A stretch of DNA of 64,000 nt from Bdellovibrionota bacterium (GCA_044347345.1 JBIKUX010000006.1:45218-109217), one strand, 5' to 3'. Shown: positions 3,824 through 18,225, counted from the stretch's first letter. Program-made: numbers and translations. Notes: generated by a model not told the origin, from the sequence alone.

Positions 3824-4663
3824 ATGTCTAAAGACCGTGATCGTCGGTTCGGATGCTCAAAATTTTATCTATTTCCTGCATGGGCTACCCTAAGCTTGTT
3901 AGGCTTGTTTAGTAGTGCCTGCACTCAGGAAAAAGAGTCTACGTCATCATCAGCATTGCCGACTCAAAGTATTGAGAGTAAGCCCGCTGATAGTAAACCC
4001 TCTAATACTAAGGGGGATAACGAGGGTAGTGTCATGGATTCTAAAAAAATAAGTTATATAATTGGACATAATATCGGTAAAAGTCTCTTATCTGATGGTG
4101 TTAGTGTAGAGAGACAATCTTTGCTTGAAGGGTTGAGCCAGGCTCTTGAGGGTAAAAATTCGCAATTTTCAGAGCAAGAGGCCACTCAAGCGCTACAACA
4201 ACTGCAAAGAGAAGTTATGATGAAGCGTCAAGAAGCTTCAAAAGTACAAGGTAAAAAGAATGAAGAAGATGGCAAAGCGTTTTTAGCTCAGAACAAAAGT
4301 TTAGAGGGATGGATAGAGCTTCCAAGCGGCTTACAATACAAAATTGTAAAAGAAGGTTCGGGAATTAGTCCAAAATTAGAGGATACAGTTGTGGCGCATT
4401 ACACTGGAACTCTTATAAATGGCACTAAGTTTGATAGTTCTCGTGATCGTGGCCAACCAGCTGAATTTCAATTAAGTGGTTTGATTAAAGGGTGGCAAGA
4501 GGCTTTGCAGATGATGAAGCCTGGTTCCAGATGGGAACTCGTAGTACCTTCTGACTTAGCTTATGGATCTCACGGTGCTGGCCCAGGTAGCCCCATTGGT
4601 CCTAATGAAACTCTTAAATTCGATATTGAATTAGTCCAAGTGAAGAGCTCATCTACTAAGTAG
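3824..4663 (+). CDS. FKBP-type peptidyl-prolyl isomerase (FkpA/Mip-like), lipoprotein
   Basis: Lipobox FSSAC; dimerisation region KISYIIG; FKBP domain LPSGLQYK, HYTGTL..GTKFDSS, LIKGWQEAL, LAYG. Confidence 0.93.
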   Translation: MSKDRDRRFGCSKFYLFPAWATLSLLGLFSSACTQEKESTSSSALPTQSIESKPADSKPSNTKGDNEGSVMDSKKISYIIGHNIGKSLLSDGVSVERQSLLEGLSQALEGKNSQFSEQEATQALQQLQREVMMKRQEASKVQGKKNEEDGKAFLAQNKSLEGWIELPSGLQYKIVKEGSGISPKLEDTVVAHYTGTLINGTKFDSSRDRGQPAEFQLSGLIKGWQEALQMMKPGSRWELVVPSDLAYGSHGAGPGSPIGPNETLKFDIELVQVKSSSTK

Positions 4664-5738
4664 TAAGTAAAGATTTGTTTAGCCCACCATCCAGAAGTGA
4701 AAGAAAGTGGTTTTCATCAGCGATTAAGGTAGTCTGTACAGTTACCACTATAAAACACTCTCTGAGATGGTGATTAAGAGGTATTATTTCATTAATTTTT
4801 ATAGCGTCCTTTGCAGTTGTAATAATTAGAGCATTATTTGGTAATTTATCTGCATACTGCGTTAGGTCTGATAGTGAATAACGTGCATGATCTTTGGCTA
4901 AAAATTGATGTGAAATTTTCAAGCCAGTTGATTTTACAGTTTGAATAAAACCATTGGGATTAGCTATCCCACACAAAATAGCTACTTCGTTCTTTATTTC
5001 TTCTTTCTTTATTAAAGTACCATCAAGTCGTTTGAGTATGGGAGGTGTAAGAGCCGTTTCAAAAAACGGAATTTTTTTTGGCAGAATAGCTACTAGATCA
5101 TCTGGAATTGATTGAATATTAGAAATAACCTTTCGATGAGACAATATAATGGCTGAGGCTCTTTGCAGACCCTTATCTCTATCTTCTCGAAAAAAGCCTG
5201 CTGGTAAAAGCTTACCCTTTAAAAAATTATCAATTGCCTCTGAAGTACTTACATCGACCGTGATAAAATTTAAATCTCGGTGTATGTATCTGTGCTGTAA
5301 TCCGTCATCTAACAGTATGACGTTAATTTCAGGGTGATACTGTAGCAAAAGCTTTACTCCGTCACTTCTCTTTGGTGATACAACTATGGGAACGTGAAGT
5401 GTTTCTGATAGTAACTTTGGTTCATCGCCGACTACATTGCTTAATGTATCACTGTCAACAAATGTTGGCTTAGTAGCTGAACCACCGTAACCACGTGAAA
5501 TAATCCCAACCTTATAGCCTTGCTGAGTAAGAGTATTGCAGAGATAAATAATAAAAGGAGTTTTTCCAGTCCCTCCAACAGTAAGATTACCCACGCTTAT
5601 CACACTAACCGGAGCGTGATATTGTTTAATTATATTTTGGTCGAAAAGAGTATTCCGAATGGAAGTTATTTGCCCATAAAAATAACTTAATGGATTAATA
5701 ATCAGATTAGGTACCGACATATTCATATTCATATTCAC
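4656..5738 (-). CDS. lpxK: tetraacyldisaccharide 4'-kinase
   Basis: VISVGNLTVGGTGKTP, SRGYGG, GDEP, LLDDGLQH, LLPAGxxRE, CGIANP, DH, TTAKDAIK. Start ambiguous (5738/5732/5726/5720). Confidence 0.96.
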   Translation of the reverse strand: MNMNMNMSVPNLIINPLSYFYGQITSIRNTLFDQNIIKQYHAPVSVISVGNLTVGGTGKTPFIIYLCNTLTQQGYKVGIISRGYGGSATKPTFVDSDTLSNVVGDEPKLLSETLHVPIVVSPKRSDGVKLLLQYHPEINVILLDDGLQHRYIHRDLNFITVDVSTSEAIDNFLKGKLLPAGFFREDRDKGLQRASAIILSHRKVISNIQSIPDDLVAILPKKIPFFETALTPPILKRLDGTLIKKEEIKNEVAILCGIANPNGFIQTVKSTGLKISHQFLAKDHARYSLSDLTQYADKLPNNALIITTAKDAIKINEIIPLNHHLRECFIVVTVQTTLIADENHFLSLLDGGLNKSLLTT

Positions 5739-5808: not shown

Positions 5809-7083
5809 TTATACTGTTTCTAAAAGCTCTGAGCAAAGAGCTTGAATAGTACGACCGGTAGCGCCAATATGATTTTGAAAAGTCTGGTATCCTTGTTCGC
5901 CGATATTTTTAAGTGCTTCTGGACATTCGACAAGTTTTCTTAGAACTTCAGTTGCTCCTAATTGATTGGTGATTTCAATTATTCCGTTGGTTTTTTTGAG
6001 ATCTGATACAATCTCCCCAACAGTGAATGAATGAGGACCCATTACTACTGGCACTCGATAAGCCGCTGCCTCTAATGGATTGTGGCCACCAATCGGTACT
6101 AATGAAGCTCCTATAAATACGAGTGATGAGTAGGAATAAACTCGCTCAAGTTCACCAAATGTATCAAGTAATACAATACGCTCATTGTCGTTAGCAGGGC
6201 GCTTTTCAGCTTTAAGAGTGGTAAATCTGACGGCAGAAAGACCAGCATTACTGAGAGCATTTTCAAAATACTCAAACTTTTCTTTATGACGCGGCGCTAC
6301 AATAAGTTGAAGATCGTGATATTTAGACATAATTTCACGAATCGGATCAAACCAAATTTTCTCCTCCTGTGGTCTTATGCTACCTAGGGTAATAATGCTT
6401 TTGGGAGTACTAAATATAGTATGAGCGTATACTGTAGCCTCCTCTTTAGATGTTATTGATGGTTTACGATCGTACTTTGTGTTTCCGGTGATGATTATGC
6501 GATTATTTGGAATGCCAAGGTTTGCATATCTATCCTTTGATGCTCTGTCGATCACACAAGCTAGAGATATAGCTTTAACTACATCCCTTAAAAAAGGAGC
6601 TAGAACTCGATAACGGTTAACTGTTGTATCGGAAATTCGGCCATTAATAATAAGCACCTTACCTCCTTGATTTTTTACGAATCTTATCAGTTCAGGCCAA
6701 AGCTCTGTTTCACAAATAATAAGAAGTTTAATAGTAGAATTTTTTAATGCTTGTTTTAAAAATTTTTTGCTATCAAAAGGAAGAAACGCTGAACCATCGA
6801 ATAATTCTTTTCCAATTTTTTCTGCATAGTTTGAAACACTTGTGTGAAGAAAAAAGCTGGATGGAAACTTTGACTTAAAGAAGGGTAAAAGCTCCGCCAC
6901 TGATTGAGTTTCTCCGAGGGAGGCTCCATGAAACCAAACAATTGACTGATTAGTTGGTAAGCTGAATGGCCAGAAACCATACCTCTCCTTGAGTCGGTAT
7001 CTTCCTCTTGAAGAAGCAAAAAAAAATGGATAGGAAAGATAACCGAGAGCTAGCATTAAGAAGCGGTAAGAAAGTGTTCCCAT
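5809..7083 (-). CDS. waaA: 3-deoxy-D-manno-octulosonate (Kdo) transferase
   Basis: WFHGASLGE, LPFD, ETELWP, NGRIS, GNTKYD, VAPRH, DTFGEL, GGHNPLE. Confidence 0.95.
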   Translation of the reverse strand: MGTLSYRFLMLALGYLSYPFFFASSRGRYRLKERYGFWPFSLPTNQSIVWFHGASLGETQSVAELLPFFKSKFPSSFFLHTSVSNYAEKIGKELFDGSAFLPFDSKKFLKQALKNSTIKLLIICETELWPELIRFVKNQGGKVLIINGRISDTTVNRYRVLAPFLRDVVKAISLACVIDRASKDRYANLGIPNNRIIITGNTKYDRKPSITSKEEATVYAHTIFSTPKSIITLGSIRPQEEKIWFDPIREIMSKYHDLQLIVAPRHKEKFEYFENALSNAGLSAVRFTTLKAEKRPANDNERIVLLDTFGELERVYSYSSLVFIGASLVPIGGHNPLEAAAYRVPVVMGPHSFTVGEIVSDLKKTNGIIEITNQLGATEVLRKLVECPEALKNIGEQGYQTFQNHIGATGRTIQALCSELLETV

Positions 7084-7110: not shown

Positions 7111-10100
7111 CTAGCTGTACTTTTGATCTGGATTGTCGTTATGGTTTCCAGCATCCTCTGGGAATGTAATATCAATTTCATTTGTAATCTTTTTACAAGA
7201 ATTGTCGACAGAGGAGCTACCATCGAGAGACGAACTAACGAGAGATGCGCTAAATTGTAGCTCGTAGAGACGTTTGTACTCGCCGTCTTTATCCATTAAT
7301 TCGTCATGTGTTCCTATTTCAACTACTACTCCATCTTTTAAAACAAAAATTCTATTGGCTGAGCGGATTGTTGAGAGACGATGAGCTATCACAAGAGTTG
7401 TTCTGCCCTTTTCAAGAACCTCTAAGGCTTTTTGAACCTCACGTTCGGAACTATTATCAAGAGATGCTGTTGCTTCATCTAGTATCAGAATCGGAGATTT
7501 ACTAATTAAAGCTCGTGCTATAGCGATTCTTTGTCTCTCGCCGCCTGATAAGGTCATTCCACTTTCACCAATAATTGTAAAGAAACCTAGAGGAAGCTGC
7601 TTTATAAATTGATAAGCATAAGCAAGTCGGGCAGCATTCTCTACGTCCTCGAGGGTCGCATCTCTTCTGCCATATCTTATGTTTTCAAAGATAGAATCCT
7701 GAAACAAAAATGTGTGCTGGCTTACCATAGCTATTCTCGAGCGAAGCTCAGAGAGAGAAAGTTTTCTTATATCAATTCCTCCAAGAAGCAATCGACCCTG
7801 AGTTGGATCGATAAAGCGCGGGATTAGATCGACAAGTGTTGATTTCCCTGATCCAGATAGACCAACAAGTGCAATTTTTTCTCCCTCTTCGATGGACATT
7901 GTGACATTGGTAAGGGCTCCTCGGGAGGAAGAACGACTATATGAGAAAGAGATATTTTCAAAAGAAATGCAGTTTGTTTTCGGCATGGAAACTGGATTTT
8001 CTGGTGAAGCTATAGTTACTTGAGCATCGAGCACTTCGAAAATACGATGACTGCCCGCTATGCCTTGTTGTAGTGCACCTGTAACTCGACTAAGCTTTTT
8101 AAAGGGATCGTACATTAAAAAGACTGCTAGTAAAAAAGCTATAAAGTCACCCTGCGTTCTGCTGCCGGAGATAACTGTAGTACCTCCATAGAAGATAATT
8201 GTACCAATTGCTATACTAGCTAGCACTTCGTTAATTGGTCCTACAAGAGCTCTAACTTTTTCTGACCGAATTAAGGTTCGAGTAAGAGAGGAGTTAGCTT
8301 GCCGAAAACGTGATTGTTCGTAGTCTTCTGCTGTGAATAATTTTACTATTTTATTGCCGTGAATAGCTTCGCTAAAAAGAGAGGACAGAGATCCTATAGC
8401 TTCCTGACCTTTTCTTGACAGCCTTCTCATCTTCTTTCCAAATGAACTGACTGGAATAATGCCAAGAGGGAATACAATCACTGCAATAAAAGCGAGAAAT
8501 GGATCGAGAAAGAAAGCAGCAAAAGTGAGAGCAATTATTCTAACAATATCTCGAAGAATTGCTGATGTAGAATCCGTTAGAAGCGTGCGCACTAATTGAA
8601 CATCTGCAGTAGCTCTAGCCAATAAGTCGCCACTGGATTTATCAGAAAAAAAACTCGGACTTAGTAATAATAATTTTTGGTGTAGTTTGTTTCTAAGGTC
8701 TTCAACGACTCGGTGCCCTACTGAATTTTGTAGATATTGTTGGCCAAAATCAACGAAGGCTCGAAAAAAACTAATGCTTACCAAAATAATTGGAAAAATT
8801 AGTAAAACATCTCTTTGTCCATTTGTTAAAACCTTATCTAAAGCAAATTTAACAATAAACGGAACCGCTCCATCTGTTGCCCCGTAGCATACCATACATA
8901 ATATAGCTAAAATAAATCTGCGCTTGTGTGGTCTTAACAGTTCTAATAAGCGACGGTTCTCAGTGATTAACGGTGGTTTCGTGGCGGCAAGTTTTAGCGC
9001 AGTTTTAGCTACTCGAAGGGCTGCATCCTCTTTTGACTCATTAGAGGTTTCATTAGCTGAGAGATATGAAAGAAGATTTTCGCTTTTATCCCTTTCATCG
9101 TAGCTAGATAATTGTTTGCGGATTAGAGCTAAATTATCTTCGATCTGCTTTCGGTAAGCATTATCTGTAAGTAATCTGTCTACTTCATCTGCAACATTAC
9201 TGACCGTAAAATCATCTTGTAGAAGTTCTCGAATAGTATTTGGTATAAGTATGTTTACTATGGAGAATTGCTTAAGTGGAGAGAGTTTTCTTATGATTGT
9301 TGCTGAAATTGGATGAACTGCATAGACCATCGCAAAAGGAAGGCCCGCATAGGCGGCTTCAAGGTTGCATGTACCTGACTTTAAAATACCGATATCGCTA
9401 CCGAACAAAACCGTTTTTGTATCTCCTTGCCAAACTATACACCAGTCTAAATGAGGACGAATTAATTCGTAGGTACCGGCGATTAAGTGGGAAGGAATGG
9501 GTATCACTGCTGTAATTGGTTTACCTCTTTTTCTGGCTTCTAAGAGGCCGTTAATTAATATTGGTAAATTCGCGGTAACTTCCTGAGAACGGCTACCAGG
9601 GAAAATTGATACAACATTGTCGGATGAGGGGATTGCTAAAGTGCGCCGAAGTTCTGAGCTAATTTTTGTTCGCGTAGATGCTACGTCATTAGGAAACTTA
9701 TCCTTAAAAGGGTGCCCTACATAAGAAGTTCGGTAAAACCCATGTTTTGCTAAAAATTCCTTTTCAAAAGGAAATATAGTAGCTACATGATGAACGTAGC
9801 GGTCGAGAGCACGGACTCGGCTTGGACGAGAAGCCCATAACTTTGGCGGTACATAATATAATACCGGTATTTTTAAATCTCGAGCTTTTTTTGCAACACG
9901 CAGATTAAAAGTTGGAAAATCAATCAAAATAATTACATCTGGTCGCCATGTTCGTAGAGTTTTTGTAATCGTAGAGAACGCCGTAAGAAGTTGTTTACCA
10001 GAGCGGATTACTTCAATAATCCCCATCACCGCACCAGCAGATTCTGAATCAACTACTATATTAATTCCTTGAGCCTTTGAATAGCGTCCTCCCATTCCTT

Positions 10101-10344
10101 TTATTTCGGCGTGCGGCACTAGGCTAAAAATAGCTTGGGCTAACTCTGCTGCTCTTTGGTCTCCTGAAACCTCTCCGGCAATAATAAATATCTTAGGTCG
10201 GTCACACGCTGAATCTACTGTTTTAGCTAATACAGAATTTTCATCGACAGCTAATCCATCTTTAGCTAAAGGGATTGCGTTATTTGTTACACCTGTCTTT
10301 GATGTTACTGAGTTTGTCATGCTGATATTTGGCATAAATTTCAA
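7111..10344 (-). CDS. lpxB-msbA: fused lipid-A-disaccharide synthase (LpxB, aa ~51-455) / lipid A flippase MsbA-type ABC exporter (aa ~464-1035)
   Basis: LpxB motifs IAGEVSGD, IDFPTFN, IFPFE, YVGHP, PGSRSQE, SGTCNLE. These are followed by an ABC TM domain, Walker A GLSGSGKST, LSGGERQRIAIARA and ILILDEATASLD. Co-oriented with waaA and lpxK. Exact start uncertain (TTG 10344, ATG 10335/10320). Confidence 0.92.
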   Translation of the reverse strand: MKFMPNISMTNSVTSKTGVTNNAIPLAKDGLAVDENSVLAKTVDSACDRPKIFIIAGEVSGDQRAAELAQAIFSLVPHAEIKGMGGRYSKAQGINIVVDSESAGAVMGIIEVIRSGKQLLTAFSTITKTLRTWRPDVIILIDFPTFNLRVAKKARDLKIPVLYYVPPKLWASRPSRVRALDRYVHHVATIFPFEKEFLAKHGFYRTSYVGHPFKDKFPNDVASTRTKISSELRRTLAIPSSDNVVSIFPGSRSQEVTANLPILINGLLEARKRGKPITAVIPIPSHLIAGTYELIRPHLDWCIVWQGDTKTVLFGSDIGILKSGTCNLEAAYAGLPFAMVYAVHPISATIIRKLSPLKQFSIVNILIPNTIRELLQDDFTVSNVADEVDRLLTDNAYRKQIEDNLALIRKQLSSYDERDKSENLLSYLSANETSNESKEDAALRVAKTALKLAATKPPLITENRRLLELLRPHKRRFILAILCMVCYGATDGAVPFIVKFALDKVLTNGQRDVLLIFPIILVSISFFRAFVDFGQQYLQNSVGHRVVEDLRNKLHQKLLLLSPSFFSDKSSGDLLARATADVQLVRTLLTDSTSAILRDIVRIIALTFAAFFLDPFLAFIAVIVFPLGIIPVSSFGKKMRRLSRKGQEAIGSLSSLFSEAIHGNKIVKLFTAEDYEQSRFRQANSSLTRTLIRSEKVRALVGPINEVLASIAIGTIIFYGGTTVISGSRTQGDFIAFLLAVFLMYDPFKKLSRVTGALQQGIAGSHRIFEVLDAQVTIASPENPVSMPKTNCISFENISFSYSRSSSRGALTNVTMSIEEGEKIALVGLSGSGKSTLVDLIPRFIDPTQGRLLLGGIDIRKLSLSELRSRIAMVSQHTFLFQDSIFENIRYGRRDATLEDVENAARLAYAYQFIKQLPLGFFTIIGESGMTLSGGERQRIAIARALISKSPILILDEATASLDNSSEREVQKALEVLEKGRTTLVIAHRLSTIRSANRIFVLKDGVVVEIGTHDELMDKDGEYKRLYELQFSASLVSSSLDGSSSVDNSCKKITNEIDITFPEDAGNHNDNPDQKYS

Positions 10345-10584: not shown

Positions 10585-10863
10585 ATGAAAACTAATTTAC
10601 TCGTTTCCAGTGGTATTGTTCGCGCTACGTTAATAACTAGCATAAGTGTAGCGATGATTGGATGTGCTTCAGTAGGTGAAGTTCGTTCCTTGCGAGATGA
10701 GGTTAGGGGTTTGCGTTCAGCACACTCAGAAATATCTCAGGAAGCTCGCAGAGCTGGTGACGCAGCTGAAAAGGCTGAGTTACAAGCTAAAGAGGCTAAC
10801 GAAAGGTCTGTCCGTACTGAAGAAATGCTCAATCGGAGCTTTCAAAGGAGGATGTATAAGTAA
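10585..10863 (+). CDS. Lpp/OprI-like alanine-zipper outer-membrane lipoprotein
   Basis: RBS GAGGAGG; lipobox MIGC; Ala-rich heptad helix (EARRAGDAAEKAELQAKEANER); ends RSFQRRMYK with terminal Lys. Confidence 0.8.
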   Translation: MKTNLLVSSGIVRATLITSISVAMIGCASVGEVRSLRDEVRGLRSAHSEISQEARRAGDAAEKAELQAKEANERSVRTEEMLNRSFQRRMYK

Positions 10864-11965
10864 CACTAACTGATTCAGGAATGCCGTTAGCGTGGCTGAT
10901 TAGTCTATCGATTTCTTTGCGAGAAGTTGGAGAAAAACCGCGAGATTGTAGAAGTTGATAAATTTTGTTTGTTTTAACCAATTTGTTAAAGGTTAAAGTT
11001 GAACTTTGTACCTGACTTGAACCTGACAGCGTTGAGTCTCGGGGCTGTTCACGTTGAAAATGATGTGATTGATTAACTGGTTGGTGAGTGATGTTGGGAA
11101 AGTTAGAATCGTCCTGTGATAAATCAGGATGAATTTCGACAAATACGGAGTTATGTCGCTCACCAACCTTGATTTGTTCGTCAATAATTGTAACTTTTGT
11201 TCCTAGAGTTACCACAGCGAATAATTGGGCTATATCCTCAGGATACATTCGGATGCAGCCGTGAGTAACTAAAAGACCGATACCCATGGCTTTCTCAAGA
11301 TTAGTTCCGTGAATAAGATAAGTGCTGTTACTTAGTCGTAAAGCAAATTGTCCAAGGGGGTTGTTGGGTGAACCGCCCTTAATGATAGTGGGGAGCGTAT
11401 ATCCGCCGGCAAGTGCTTCACGGTGAAGTGAGGGCGGAGGAATCCAATCTGGATGAACTATCTTTTCGGTTATTATTTTAACCCCCAGCGGTGTCTCCCA
11501 ACCTTCTCTACCGAGGCTAACCGGAAAAGTCATTACATCTGTAGAATCATCACCTTTTGGAAAATAATACAAGCGCATTTCAGCTCTGTTAAGTATTATG
11601 CCGGTGCGTGGTCCAGGGGGTAGAACATACATTTGCGGGATTTTAACCTTAGTTCCGTCACCAGGAAGCCATACCGAAATATTTGGATTAGCCTGTACAA
11701 TCTGTTTAAATCCAAGATCGTATCTGCGAGCTATGACTGGTAATGTATCTTCCTTGGATGCTGTAATAAAAAATTTATTACCAATGACGGATTCCTTAGG
11801 TGAATTTAAGTTAAAAGTTTCAGCAAGGGCAAATTTTTTACTATTATCCGAAATCAAATTAATGCTGATTAATATTGCCAAAACCACTAAACTGACTCGT
11901 AGTATGTGATTAATTAATAATATTACCGTTAGATTACTTAATAGATTCTTCATTAGTTTTTTCAT
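10829..11965 (-). CDS. L,D-transpeptidase (ErfK/YbiS/YcfS-like; LysM-like + YkuD)
   Basis: IARRYDLG..ANP, EMRLYYFP, GREGWETP, PxWxPP, NPLG, YLIHGT, catalytic THGCIRM. Confidence 0.93.
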   Translation of the reverse strand: MKKLMKNLLSNLTVILLINHILRVSLVVLAILISINLISDNSKKFALAETFNLNSPKESVIGNKFFITASKEDTLPVIARRYDLGFKQIVQANPNISVWLPGDGTKVKIPQMYVLPPGPRTGIILNRAEMRLYYFPKGDDSTDVMTFPVSLGREGWETPLGVKIITEKIVHPDWIPPPSLHREALAGGYTLPTIIKGGSPNNPLGQFALRLSNSTYLIHGTNLEKAMGIGLLVTHGCIRMYPEDIAQLFAVVTLGTKVTIIDEQIKVGERHNSVFVEIHPDLSQDDSNFPNITHQPVNQSHHFQREQPRDSTLSGSSQVQSSTLTFNKLVKTNKIYQLLQSRGFSPTSRKEIDRLISHANGIPESVSVTYTSSFESSD

Positions 11966-15818: not shown

Positions 15819-16526
15819 TTATGGTACTACAGCAATTGTTCCTACAATTGTAGCTGAACCTGGAATTTGGCTCCAAGTCCCATTTGCACTACCCCTTGCA
15901 ATCGCTGTTAGTCTGAATCTGACTGGTGTCGTCATTATGTTACCAGAATCAAGAGTTTGACCGGATTGATCTTCTCCTAAAGCTTCTTGTTCTAATCTCT
16001 CAACTTGAACCCACTGACTTAATCCTTGATTATTTGAAATCAGATAATCAGGAGGAGTATCTGGACGAGCTTGTAATTGTCGGTGTATTGGTTGAGCCAA
16101 AGAAACAGTTGTTGCATAGTCTCCAGCAAACGGTCCGATATTTTTAACTAAACCACCAGAATAGGGGTACATATTTCGATGACAACCTGGACTGTTGATC
16201 TCACAGTGAGGAATGCCGTTTTGATCCTGCGCACTGAGGGGGCTGTAAGCCTGATAGTTTAATGGAGAATCAAGAGTTTGTAACGCATCCCACTGTTTTG
16301 CATTCGAGGCAATTTGAGCTGCTTGGCTATAAAGAGCTCCCTCAGCAGCGGCAAATAATTGCGCAGACTGCTCGTAATTATTTGATGTTTGCAGCATATT
16401 TCTGCCCATGAGGCTGACTACGGCAGCAACCATCACCATAGTAACAAGAAAAAAAAGAGCTACTGGCAGGGCAAACCCGGATTGCTGTGATACTTTCAGG
16501 AGCTTATTATCAGCATCGGTGATCAT
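15819..16526 (-). CDS. type IV minor pilin, PilX-like
   Basis: QSG|FALPVAL hydrophobic helix lacking Glu5; LFAAAEGAL; last gene of the pilin cluster. Confidence 0.75.
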   Translation of the reverse strand: MITDADNKLLKVSQQSGFALPVALFFLVTMVMVAAVVSLMGRNMLQTSNNYEQSAQLFAAAEGALYSQAAQIASNAKQWDALQTLDSPLNYQAYSPLSAQDQNGIPHCEINSPGCHRNMYPYSGGLVKNIGPFAGDYATTVSLAQPIHRQLQARPDTPPDYLISNNQGLSQWVQVERLEQEALGEDQSGQTLDSGNIMTTPVRFRLTAIARGSANGTWSQIPGSATIVGTIAVVP

Positions 16527-17203
16527 ACCGTTTTTCTCCTCATGCCTACACTACTTTGGAAAGGAATCAGACGTGGATTATTTGTTTGATTTTTTACCTC
16601 GATCTGAAACGCTATACTAAGGGCGTTATTTTCTATAGTAAAAACTTTACCGTTGTTAATCTCTGGGGCACGAATTCTAGAGGTCATTAATAGAGCAGAA
16701 TTGAGCGGATCTGTAGCGGGTGTATTGCAGGTTCCATCTGATTGTCTTGATGGTGGATTATTCATAAGAATCTGACCACGGACAAGCTCATTTTTGGCTG
16801 GATTGAAACGGTAACCAACGTACCAAAGTTGTTGGCCTCTACCGGCGCTTTGGCTTACTGAATCGTGGCTGACAAAAAATCTAATATCGTTCCCGTCAGT
16901 GCTGATTTCAACCTGATTAGGACACATTTCAAGAGCTGAATTAATCCCACCAAAGTATGGAGATAGTATCCCAGCCATTCTCACTTCTGCGAGTAATGAG
17001 TGTAAAATGTAACGAGCTTGCATTGATGATTCAGCAGCTTGAGTCTCAAAAGATAGTGTGCTGTAAGCAGAGGATGTTGCACTAGCAATACTTAAGATGG
17101 TGACACCAAGTAAGACTACTGCTACAAGCATCTCCATGAGTGTATAGGCTTGACTATTTTTAACCTTAGAAGAGATACGATGAAGTGGTTTACCTGAAGT
17201 CAT
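16523..17203 (-). CDS. type IV minor pilin, PilW-like
   Basis: QA|YTLMEMLVAV prepilin motif; EVRMAG; 4-bp overlap with next gene. Confidence 0.8.
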   Translation of the reverse strand: MTSGKPLHRISSKVKNSQAYTLMEMLVAVVLLGVTILSIASATSSAYSTLSFETQAAESSMQARYILHSLLAEVRMAGILSPYFGGINSALEMCPNQVEISTDGNDIRFFVSHDSVSQSAGRGQQLWYVGYRFNPAKNELVRGQILMNNPPSRQSDGTCNTPATDPLNSALLMTSRIRAPEINNGKVFTIENNALSIAFQIEVKNQTNNPRLIPFQSSVGMRRKTV

Positions 17204-17214
17204 GCAAATTCCAT

Positions 17215-17688
17215 CTATCTAAAATCAGCTAAAACAGTTGAGAATTGGTAGCTGATGGGAGCATAACCTGCTCCCATCTTATTGCGTACAACCAGATTTA
17301 TCTCTACCCAGTCAGGTAAAATAGCTGACGGAGCACTCATACGAGCTATATATTCAATATTTATTGAGTAGTTTGCTTTTTCAATAGATGTAGCAGAAGT
17401 TGGAGAAAAAATTGTTTGAGTGACAACTTGGTTTTTGGTAATCGCATCACTGCCAAAGATGCTCACGATATTTTGAGCATAAGGTTTGCTTCGCATTGAT
17501 TCAATTAAACCTTGAGCTGCAAACATAGCTTCTGTATTTCTTCGAGAATGAGACGTTGAGTGAATAGATCTTATTAAAAGTCCCCCAAAAGCAATAAGTG
17601 TCATGCTTATGAGCGAGAGCGCAATCATGTTCTCAATAATTGAGATACCTGAGTTTTTGCCTCGAAATTGTTTTTTAAATCTGAACAT
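17215..17688 (-). CDS. type IV minor pilin, PilV-like
   Basis: SG|ISIIENMIAL prepilin motif; AQGLIESMR. Confidence 0.75.
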   Translation of the reverse strand: MFRFKKQFRGKNSGISIIENMIALSLISMTLIAFGGLLIRSIHSTSHSRRNTEAMFAAQGLIESMRSKPYAQNIVSIFGSDAITKNQVVTQTIFSPTSATSIEKANYSINIEYIARMSAPSAILPDWVEINLVVRNKMGAGYAPISYQFSTVLADFR

Positions 17689-17703
17689 ATCTTTTACACT
17701 TGC

Positions 17704-18225
17704 TCACTTAATCCCTTGCTCCATTGACACAGATCCAAATGGATTAACTATCACCGTCTGTTTTATTGTCCCTAGTTGTATTGTTAAAGTAATAGGATTT
17801 AAAATAAGTTCTCCGTTTTGATAGACATGACCCAATCCAGAAAACGTGAACTGTTGAGGCAGTTCTTCCCACTTAATCAGTTTTTTAGTTAATTCTTCCT
17901 TAAAGCTAAATTCGTCGTCGCGAAGCGTTCCTGTGCCAGCTACATCGTAAAAAAAACCGTTCTCTTCAAAAGATACCGTTACTGGTCTATGAGATCTTAT
18001 TGCTTCAAAGCGAGAATGTTGTAACTTCAGTGCTATTGTCCGTCTTATCACGCCTAGACTTTGCCATTTGGTAGTTTCAGAAATACTAGCGTATGCTACA
18101 CCTAAAACTATATTTAAAATTCCTACTGAAATAATGAGCTCTAAAAGAGTAAAACCTCGACAATAGTTTAATTGAGATCTTTTTATCTCAGCCCATTCCT
18201 TCATACTCAAGGTCCACTGTATCAA
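17704..18225 (-). CDS. type IV minor pilin/pseudopilin, FimT/FimU/GspH-like
   Basis: RG|FTLLELII; SRFEAIR..PVTVSF; FTFSGLG; VIVNPFG. True start may be a downstream ATG. Confidence 0.8.
   Translation of the reverse strand: MIQWTLSMKEWAEIKRSQLNYCRGFTLLELIISVGILNIVLGVAYASISETTKWQSLGVIRRTIALKLQHSRFEAIRSHRPVTVSFEENGFFYDVAGTGTLRDDEFSFKEELTKKLIKWEELPQQFTFSGLGHVYQNGELILNPITLTIQLGTIKQTVIVNPFGSVSMEQGIK

Follow-up and report, generated by a model that had tools for sequence, protein, structure and literature searches.

Can LpxB, the lipid A disaccharide synthase, and MsbA, the lipid A flippase, be made and work as one polypeptide? The question is raised by lpxB::msbA, an open reading frame (ORF) in a 64,000-nucleotide (nt) stretch of DNA from a Bdellovibrionota bacterium (GCA_044347345.1, JBIKUX010000006.1:45218-109217), here called the window and numbered from its first nucleotide. 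According to the ORF list and its translation, the gene runs as a single frame from 10344 to 7111 on the minus strand and encodes 1077 amino acid residues (aa) from a TTG codon. A preceding sequence-only reading had placed the gene rightly at 7111-10344, with the strand left unstated, and had claimed a complete LpxB and a complete ATP-binding cassette (ABC) exporter on one ORF; both halves were recovered in the Pfam and NCBIfam scans given below. Chance is not in question, since the frame runs uninterrupted for 3.2 kb, contains both domain matches at full length and recurs in related genomes. We consider lpxB::msbA to be a genuine bifunctional gene heading an lpxB::msbA-waaA-lpxK operon, with a probability of roughly 80%. 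The gene and its principal domains are as follows.

7111-10344, minus strand: lpxB::msbA fused gene (ORF list and translation; Pfam and NCBIfam domains)
9115-10191, minus strand: LpxB domain, aa 52-410, glycosyltransferase family GT19 with GT-B fold (PF02684, E 3e-68; alignment to 5W8S)
8110-8961, minus strand: MsbA elbow helix (aa 462-468) and six-helix transmembrane domain (Pfam 477-745; PF00664)
7222-7914, minus strand: ATP-binding domain, aa 811-1041 (PF00005; motifs from the translation; confident in the AlphaFold2 (AF2) model)

The LpxB half

The LpxB half scored 230.8 bits against PF02684 (cut-off 22.6; model positions 1-357 of 374) and 196.3 bits against the NCBIfam lpxB model TIGR00215, above the cut-off of 190.25, and was aligned by phmmer with residues 8-364 of the 382 residues of Escherichia coli LpxB (5W8S, E 1e-31). 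In that alignment the active-site residues E15, S17, D98, P198-G199-S200-R201, T277, E281 and N316 of E. coli LpxB were all matched in the fusion; the residue list was taken from Table 3 and the text of PMC5785501. A search of the source genome with the LpxB model gave one match only, the fused gene.

The likeness to E. coli LpxB (5W8S/5W8X; PMC5785501) thus lies in the alignment of the fold and in the kept active-site residues. E. coli LpxB, however, stands alone as a peripheral membrane protein and dimerizes by a C-terminal swap, whereas the fused LpxB runs on into the transporter, has a disordered insert of about 25 aa before its last helix and carries Ile at the position equivalent to F298. 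The N-terminal domain of each E. coli subunit is completed by the last helix (369-382) of its partner and also bears the hydrophobic membrane-binding patch; six or seven surface mutations were required for solubility before the structure was solved (PMC5785501). A complex prediction with two copies of the LpxB part (aa 48-460), run without controls, gave a score of 0.28 against a mark of 0.42, a value that speaks neither for nor against dimerization.

The MsbA half

ABC_membrane (PF00664) was found at aa 477-745 (E 4e-50) and ABC_tran (PF00005) at aa 811-960 (E 8e-33). The motif RRLLELL, which had been picked out from the sequence alone as the elbow helix, was confirmed to begin at aa 464, corresponding to nt 8955. 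The translation of the ATP-binding domain contains GLSGSGKST, LSGGERQR, ILILDEATASLD and AHRLST, all intact, which we take to be the Walker A motif, the signature, the Walker B motif and the H-loop, respectively. Among 192 NCBIfam families that matched, the MsbA family TIGR02203 ranked first (560.9 bits, model positions 3-571 of 572) and led the next family by 58 bits. In alignment to Vibrio cholerae MsbA (3b5x), presumed to share the numbering of E. coli MsbA, R528, R598 and K749 of the fusion correspond to R78, R148 and K299. These residues belong to the lipid A site of the inner cavity, and their mutation abolished lipid-stimulated ATPase activity (PMC10945598). Foldseek searches with the predicted model matched MsbA and its relatives with TM-scores of about 0.7 by target, which is the half-transporter fold of type IV ABC exporters, and a search of the Protein Data Bank (PDB) with the transmembrane domain only gave MsbA proteins from several entries as the best matches. 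The best MsbA match of the source genome was the fused gene itself (563 bits), followed at about 384 bits by an ABC exporter on contig C3, which looks generic in that HlyB-type models score close behind its MsbA score.

Compared with MsbA of E. coli, V. cholerae and Acinetobacter baumannii (3b5x, 7met, 5tv4), the fused protein has the same half-transporter fold, the ATPase motifs and the equivalents of R78, R148 and K299, and its gene shares an operon with lpxK, as known MsbA genes do. Known MsbA proteins begin a few residues before the elbow helix; the fused protein differs in adding 460 N-terminal residues with an enzyme.

On sequence alone, the ABC half could instead be a related exporter for another lipid or glycolipid, with the fused protein serving a side pathway. 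Its MsbA score stayed below the NCBIfam equivalog cut-off (560.9 versus 602 bits), MsbA proteins and Sav1866 tied at 365 bits when the whole ABC half was searched against the PDB, TmrAB likewise scored close to MsbA in such searches, and the exporter on contig C3 provides a second MsbA-like protein. Set against this are the 58-bit lead of the MsbA_lipidA family, the mere 383 bits of the C3 paralogue with HlyB-type models near, the kept equivalents of R78, R148 and K299, and the position of the fused gene next to waaA and lpxK, where msbA stands in 41 related loci; a side pathway is further opposed by the fact that the fused LpxB is the only LpxB of the genome. Dedication to another lipid was accordingly judged very unlikely, and the ABC half is best described as MsbA-type and a probable orthologue rather than a certified equivalog. 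Both halves look active, because the catalytic, ATPase and lipid-A-binding residues are kept.

Operon context

Two further lipid A genes follow the fused gene on the same strand, and a divergent gene lies upstream.

5809-7083, minus strand: waaA, Kdo transferase (PF04413, E 2e-42), 27 nt after the fused gene
4656-5738, minus strand: lpxK, tetraacyldisaccharide 4'-kinase (PF02606, E 9e-85), 70 nt after waaA
10345-10584, no strand: intergenic region of 240 nt between the fused gene and a divergent small lipoprotein gene, presumed to hold the operon promoter (ORF map)

For lpxK, TIGR00682 gave 223.3 bits against a cut-off of 91.95; for waaA, the lipid IV(A) Kdo transferase models were the best NCBIfam matches, yet remained below their cut-offs. 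Co-transcription of the fused gene with waaA and lpxK is plausible, because the gaps are only 27 and 70 nt. Minus-strand sites resembling promoters were noted at 10501-10474 and 10400-10372; overall, the scan for promoters and terminators gave 17 sites against 19.5 expected in shuffled sequence, which is no excess, and did not locate the operon promoter.

LpxC, LpxA, LpxI and LptD were found elsewhere in the source genome, and LpxK and WaaA adjoin the fused gene. Because these other proteins are encoded, the genome would be expected to make lipid A, and to do so with no other LpxB. lpxA adjoins lpxI outside the window (G000:C32:81041-82722, minus strand). On account of this neighbourhood the genome appears to use LpxI, not LpxH, and lpxB appears to have left the lpxA-lpxI neighbourhood for a place before msbA. 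The LpxC match, also outside the window (G000:C10:66298-67104, minus strand), lies in a frame of 494 aa, much longer than the LpxC model with its 268 positions, and this frame could be another fusion, for example with FabZ; LpxC-FabZ fusions occur in other phyla.

Junction and predicted structure

A scripted scan of the junction turned up no in-frame start codon (ATG, GTG or TTG) in the stretch between aa 395 and aa 483. The earliest one in the MsbA part is the ATG at aa 484, which lies inside predicted transmembrane helix 1 (TM1; helix 471-508), where Met 484 is a conserved residue that is also present in unfused MsbA proteins. The suggestion made from sequence alone that the MsbA part lacks its own start is thereby upheld. 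The AF2 model, computed from a 101-row alignment, had a mean predicted local distance difference test score (pLDDT) of 85.3 and a predicted TM-score (pTM) of 0.74; both halves were confident, and disorder was predicted at residues 1-47, 420-435 and 1043-1077. The segments that join and flank the two halves are listed from the N-terminus.

10204-10344, minus strand: N-terminal extension, aa 1-47, predicted disordered (AF2 pLDDT <50 at 1-47; first start codons of relatives)
9025-9102, minus strand: low-complexity insert, aa 415-440, of low model confidence (AF2 pLDDT <50 at 420-425 and 431-435)
8980-9024, minus strand: confident helix, aa 441-455 (..AALRVAKTALKLAA; AF2 block pLDDT 95; invariant A155 in alignment A1)
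8962-8979, minus strand: connector TKPPLI, aa 456-461, from the last helix of LpxB to the elbow helix of MsbA (AF2; comparison with in-frame separate genes)
7111-7221, minus strand: C-terminal tail, aa 1042-1077, and stop codon, predicted disordered (AF2 pLDDT <50 at 1043-1077)

By its gaps in alignment A1, the insert at aa 415-440 is the longest of its kind among ten aligned fused proteins. We infer that the helix at aa 441-455 is LpxB's own last helix, because a helix of this kind (..YERVAKL.. type), with a few residues after it, closes the stand-alone LpxB proteins of relatives; these tails were compared by C-terminal sequence rather than by alignment columns, since the global alignment A2 misplaced them. 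The tether would then amount to about six residues after the last helix of LpxB, and not to the linker of about 50 residues that had been assumed. As only these six or so residues part the last helix from the elbow helix, the membrane-facing domain of LpxB may be kept at the membrane surface beside the transporter in the predicted structure. Foldseek returned only ABC exporters, over about 570-600 aligned columns, and among the solved structures none with an extra N-terminal enzyme of this kind.

An alternative start of the fused gene, the ATG at 10335, lies three codons in and gives 1074 aa, the form recorded in the protein collection. The true start codon and N-terminus of the fused protein are uncertain, because the LpxB domain lies nearer to the first start codon in other fused proteins than in the 1077-aa protein and because the sequence before both candidates, TTG 10344 and ATG 10335, showed nothing resembling a Shine-Dalgarno site.

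Sequence evidence across the junction

The source genome (2.53 Mb, 95.8% complete) is in 68 contigs and is probably metagenome-assembled, so that the long frame might be an assembly or sequencing artefact; it might also be that the MsbA half is additionally made from an internal start. Of the 24 public sequencing runs listed, 15 contained half or more of the words sampled from the junction region, and all 15 were lake or freshwater metagenomes. Contigs of two DNA runs, X10 (7645-9198) and X12 (8630-9574), neither flagged as a possible source of the window, crossed the junction with 0 differences and 0 gaps, hence with no stop codon or frameshift of the kind that a mapping check had been meant to reveal; the comparison used contigs, which lose rare variants. 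The identical 1074-aa protein was recorded on 9 contigs from several sources. Given that 13 genomes share the frame, that it recurs in no fewer than 28 further protein clusters and that contigs of independent runs contain it, together with the lack of an in-frame start codon at aa 395-483 and a Met 484 that sits within TM1 and is conserved in unfused MsbA as well, an artefact or an internal start was considered extremely unlikely, even with the fragmented source genome and the dropping of rare variants taken into account.

Contigs from RNA libraries covered three short pieces of the fused gene (8404-8601, 8955-9114 and 10089-10255). The only indel seen was an insertion of 15 nt at 7234, in frame, in another lake metagenome run that also has G>A changes at 7267 and 7282. 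The insertion falls close to where the ATP-binding domain ends, shortly before the disordered C-terminal tail, and represents strain-level length variation.

Distribution of the fused architecture

The LpxB model was searched over 91 genomes of the order, 86 of which had a match. LpxB lay in an open frame of 915-1091 aa in 12 of the 91, and in one more the frame of 715 aa was ended by the contig end. Fused frames were thus counted in 13 of 91 genomes, in five families (f1, f2, f3, f15 and f21); LpxB and MsbA were found in one frame by tblastn in 10 of 10 long-frame loci that were fetched. In genome G043 (family f2) the LpxB frame reaches the contig end, and it was scored neither as fused nor as separate. 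No long LpxB frame was found in the rest of the phylum (33 genomes, 31 with an LpxB match). The search for the same architecture in relatives, which had been proposed to decide whether all close relatives have separate genes, therefore gave a mixed answer, in that some genomes of the order are fused and others separate.

A species-genome collection was also scanned with a junction-spanning profile, for which figures refer to the 80 best loci. These comprised 12 fused loci, 41 with lpxB directly before a separate msbA, 18 with msbA only and 9 with lpxB only, where 'msbA only' means that no lpxB lies within 4 kb upstream, or within the shorter stretch available before the contig ends. The 12 fused loci correspond to genomes already counted in the order set. 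Fused records are titled Bdellovibrionota or uncultured Bdellovibrionales, a few 'bacterium', 'Proteobacteria' or 'Candidatus Dadabacteria'; the carriers belong to one order of uncultured, mostly freshwater bacteria.

By shared words, 18 fused protein clusters of a large protein collection match the LpxB part. Of 29 'longer' matches to the junction profile, 28 were fused, giving at least 28 further protein clusters. At least 8 long proteins (900 aa or more) stood among the best 150 of a protein-representative search with the LpxB part, a count that is a lower bound since this search missed the window's own protein and the 55%-identical P0003; fused proteins are suspected to be filed under clusters represented by other proteins. 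Databases name the fused proteins after one half, as 'MsbA' or 'lipid-A-disaccharide synthase'. As to whether the architecture is already common and described, it is present in databases as unnamed or half-named proteins of metagenome-assembled genomes (MAGs), while no describing paper was found: a full-text literature search, the coverage of which excludes most subscription journals and supplements, gave no paper on an LpxB-MsbA fusion, in keeping with the sequence-only reading, the author of which had known of no characterised example. The parts are ordinary (the LpxB family and, probably, the MsbA family), and the combination is what is new.

Origin of the fusion

The separate gene order lpxB-msbA-waaA-lpxK reaches beyond the lineage, into records titled Binatia, Syntrophobacter, Thermodesulfobacteriota, Verrucomicrobiia and others. 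Of the 41 separate loci, 25 have their nearest candidate msbA start overlapping the stop of lpxB (TAATG, TGATG or ATGA in most cases), and in 14 the start follows the stop by 3-27 nt; two loci are broken. In six loci (L038, L043, L045, L047, L082 and L091) both genes are in one frame with a stop codon and 1-9 codons between them, the junction of L045 reading ..RVAQLIVELARGDGLVREVG-stop-GMYWRIFRYL... The separate operons of L045, L047 and L086 have the same order as the fused locus and an MsbA part 47-58% identical to that of the fusion, but keep the stop codon and a separate msbA start and so yield two proteins. Given such in-frame neighbours in relatives, the loss of one stop codon would produce the fused architecture, and comparison with these relatives suggests that the fusion arose in this way between translationally coupled neighbours. 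It would be a clean case of fusion by a single stop-codon loss, with the pre-fusion and the fused state both present in living relatives.

A tree of both parts without the linker was calculated from 47 rows and 930 columns, with loci excluded that did not carry both genes, that had an LpxB match of <290 or an MsbA match of <500 query residues, or that were truncated (L052) or had a stop inside the match (L090). The fused rows all grouped, with good support, in a clade of 31 rows that also contains family f5 and 17 rows of separate forms that make up a clade of their own. Within the 31-row clade the backbone lacks resolution: the free tree requires 3 state changes, and the supported branches allow 1. 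An approximately unbiased (AU) test with the 12 fused rows constrained to one clade did not reject this arrangement (p 0.344), so that a single origin of the fusion is possible. The branch of the window was very long (1.41). Family f5 (G004, G023), in which the genes are separate in overlapping frames, was considered as a secondary split; its TAATG/ATGA overlaps match those of many distant relatives, which makes ancestral separation the simpler account, and the question was not decided by the tree.

The ease of such an origin raises the possibility that the fusion is a neutral accident, in which a stop codon was lost between tightly coupled genes, the function of each half is unchanged and nothing is gained from the tether in co-localization or dosage. 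A single point change parts the fused form from the in-frame separate form of L045 and L047, most of the order and all 31 other LpxB-matching genomes of the phylum keep separate genes, and other lipid A gene fusions in related MAGs (LpxB-LpxK in L114 and L115; WaaA-LpxK in L078) speak for an easy origin. The fused state has, however, been kept across five families in proteins that are only 40-45% identical over the junction region, every complete LpxB frame examined in these five families was fused, and no reversion by a new stop codon was seen. We regard neutrality as rather unlikely but as a serious rival, and consider a benefit from the fusion more likely.

Comparison with known systems

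In concept, the fusion resembles MprF (PMC4324311), in which a lipid-making enzyme and a lipid flippase lie on one polypeptide. Folds and lipids are unrelated, and the MprF flippase takes the direct product of its synthase, whereas several enzymes intervene between LpxB and MsbA.

Some ABC exporters carry an N-terminal cytoplasmic enzyme domain, such as the bacteriocin exporters with a C39 peptidase. TIGR03796 and TIGR01193 were among the weaker NCBIfam matches of the fused protein. The C39-peptidase exporters share with it the placing of an enzyme domain on the cytoplasmic N-terminus of the same exporter class; they differ in that the peptidase acts on the exported cargo itself, and the LpxB domain is unrelated to it.

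Other fusions were encountered with the Pfam scans. Proteins of 736 aa at L114:2068-4275 and L115:1991-4198, in records titled Bdellovibrionota or Bdellovibrionales, join LpxB (aa 4-387) to LpxK (aa 417-727), which are consecutive enzymes of the Raetz pathway. At L078:5738-7969, directly after a separate msbA, a 744-aa protein joins a WaaA N-domain (aa 31-204) to LpxK (aa 421-741). Like lpxB::msbA, these are pairwise fusions within the same neighbouring set of lipid A genes and are from uncultured bacteria only; the partners differ. In P0172, of 718 aa, a GFO/IDH/MocA oxidoreductase (aa 19-324) precedes LpxB (aa 341-675) and might modify the sugar.

Proposed function

The fused protein would be made whole and inserted through its MsbA half, with LpxB in the cytoplasm. 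Because the N-terminus of MsbA is cytoplasmic, LpxB, which is normally peripheral, would be held permanently on the cytoplasmic face of the membrane, within a few residues of the elbow helix of the flippase and in a fixed 1:1 amount with MsbA. Dimerization would proceed through MsbA, and a two-chain LpxB2-MsbA2 particle would be the simplest assembly, because both partners are homodimers elsewhere. One protein would thus carry out both the disaccharide synthase step and flipping. The most likely benefit, as far as the comparisons suggest, would be co-localization and matched dosage of late lipid A steps at the site of export.

In the Raetz pathway LpxB forms the tetra-acylated disaccharide from UDP-diacylglucosamine and lipid X, and the pathway proceeds from there through LpxK, WaaA and late acylation to MsbA. 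A direct hand-over of substrate from LpxB to MsbA is argued against by this order, because the LpxB product has first to be processed by LpxK, WaaA and the late acyltransferases, and the synthesis-to-export assembly line envisaged in the sequence-only reading is for this reason not supported in the form proposed. In a wider version, the late Raetz pathway would form a particle at the membrane with the fused protein as its fixed core, either LpxB2-MsbA2 or MsbA dimers chained by swapped LpxB dimers, that recruits LpxK and WaaA so that lipid A is finished and flipped at one site. This version is speculative and we think it unlikely; if true, it would be the first natural evidence of physical coupling between lipid A synthesis and export and would predict a transient LpxB-MsbA contact where the proteins are separate.

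Several observations weigh against a bifunctional gene with an advantage of its own, in addition to the sub-threshold score and the Sav1866 tie of the ABC half. In the fusion, Ile takes the place of F298, the residue that in E. coli LpxB stacks on R201 in trans, and neither candidate start has a Shine-Dalgarno-like sequence. One RNA-library contig matches 8955-9114 exactly; such libraries can carry DNA, and the contig is a weak hint at best, being compatible equally with a fused and with a merely polycistronic reading. The pathway does not depend on the fusion, because the two genes are separate in the majority of the order (about 70 of 86 LpxB-matching genomes). The pathway order, finally, argues against direct channelling. 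A selectively neutral fusion retains some probability.

With these points included, a bifunctional lpxB::msbA is still the reading that we prefer. The fused gene is real, conserved and mechanistically suggestive for lipopolysaccharide assembly; as fusions go it is a simple one, of two genes, and it comes from uncultured bacteria. Its presence across five families indicates that the two activities tolerate, and possibly benefit from, a proximity of a few residues, and that the disaccharide synthase and flippase steps of lipid A can be physically tied in one protein. It bears on how the cytoplasmic steps of lipid A synthesis are organized at the inner membrane and kept in step with MsbA-driven export, and it leads to the prediction that LpxB works next to MsbA. 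LpxB and MsbA are both antibiotic targets, and the fusion offers a ready-made, membrane-anchored full-length LpxB for structural work. For annotation, the current database names cover only one of the two halves of such proteins.

Further observations in the window

The divergent gene upstream of the fused gene is a 92-aa ORF (10585-10863, plus strand). A strong ribosome-binding site, GGAGG, precedes it, its product has a signal peptide and the lipobox-like sequence ..MIGC, and the match in Pfam is to Alanine_zipper, major outer membrane lipoprotein (E 4e-8). Adjoining and convergent with it is a YkuD L,D-transpeptidase gene with a LysM match (10829-11965, minus strand). The pair may represent a Braun-lipoprotein-like anchor with its attaching enzyme. 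Further along, at 15819-18225 on the minus strand, four consecutive ORFs of 157-235 aa have, by their translations only, hydrophobic N-terminal segments like those of type IV pilins or pseudopilins, for example ..GFTLLELIISVGIL..

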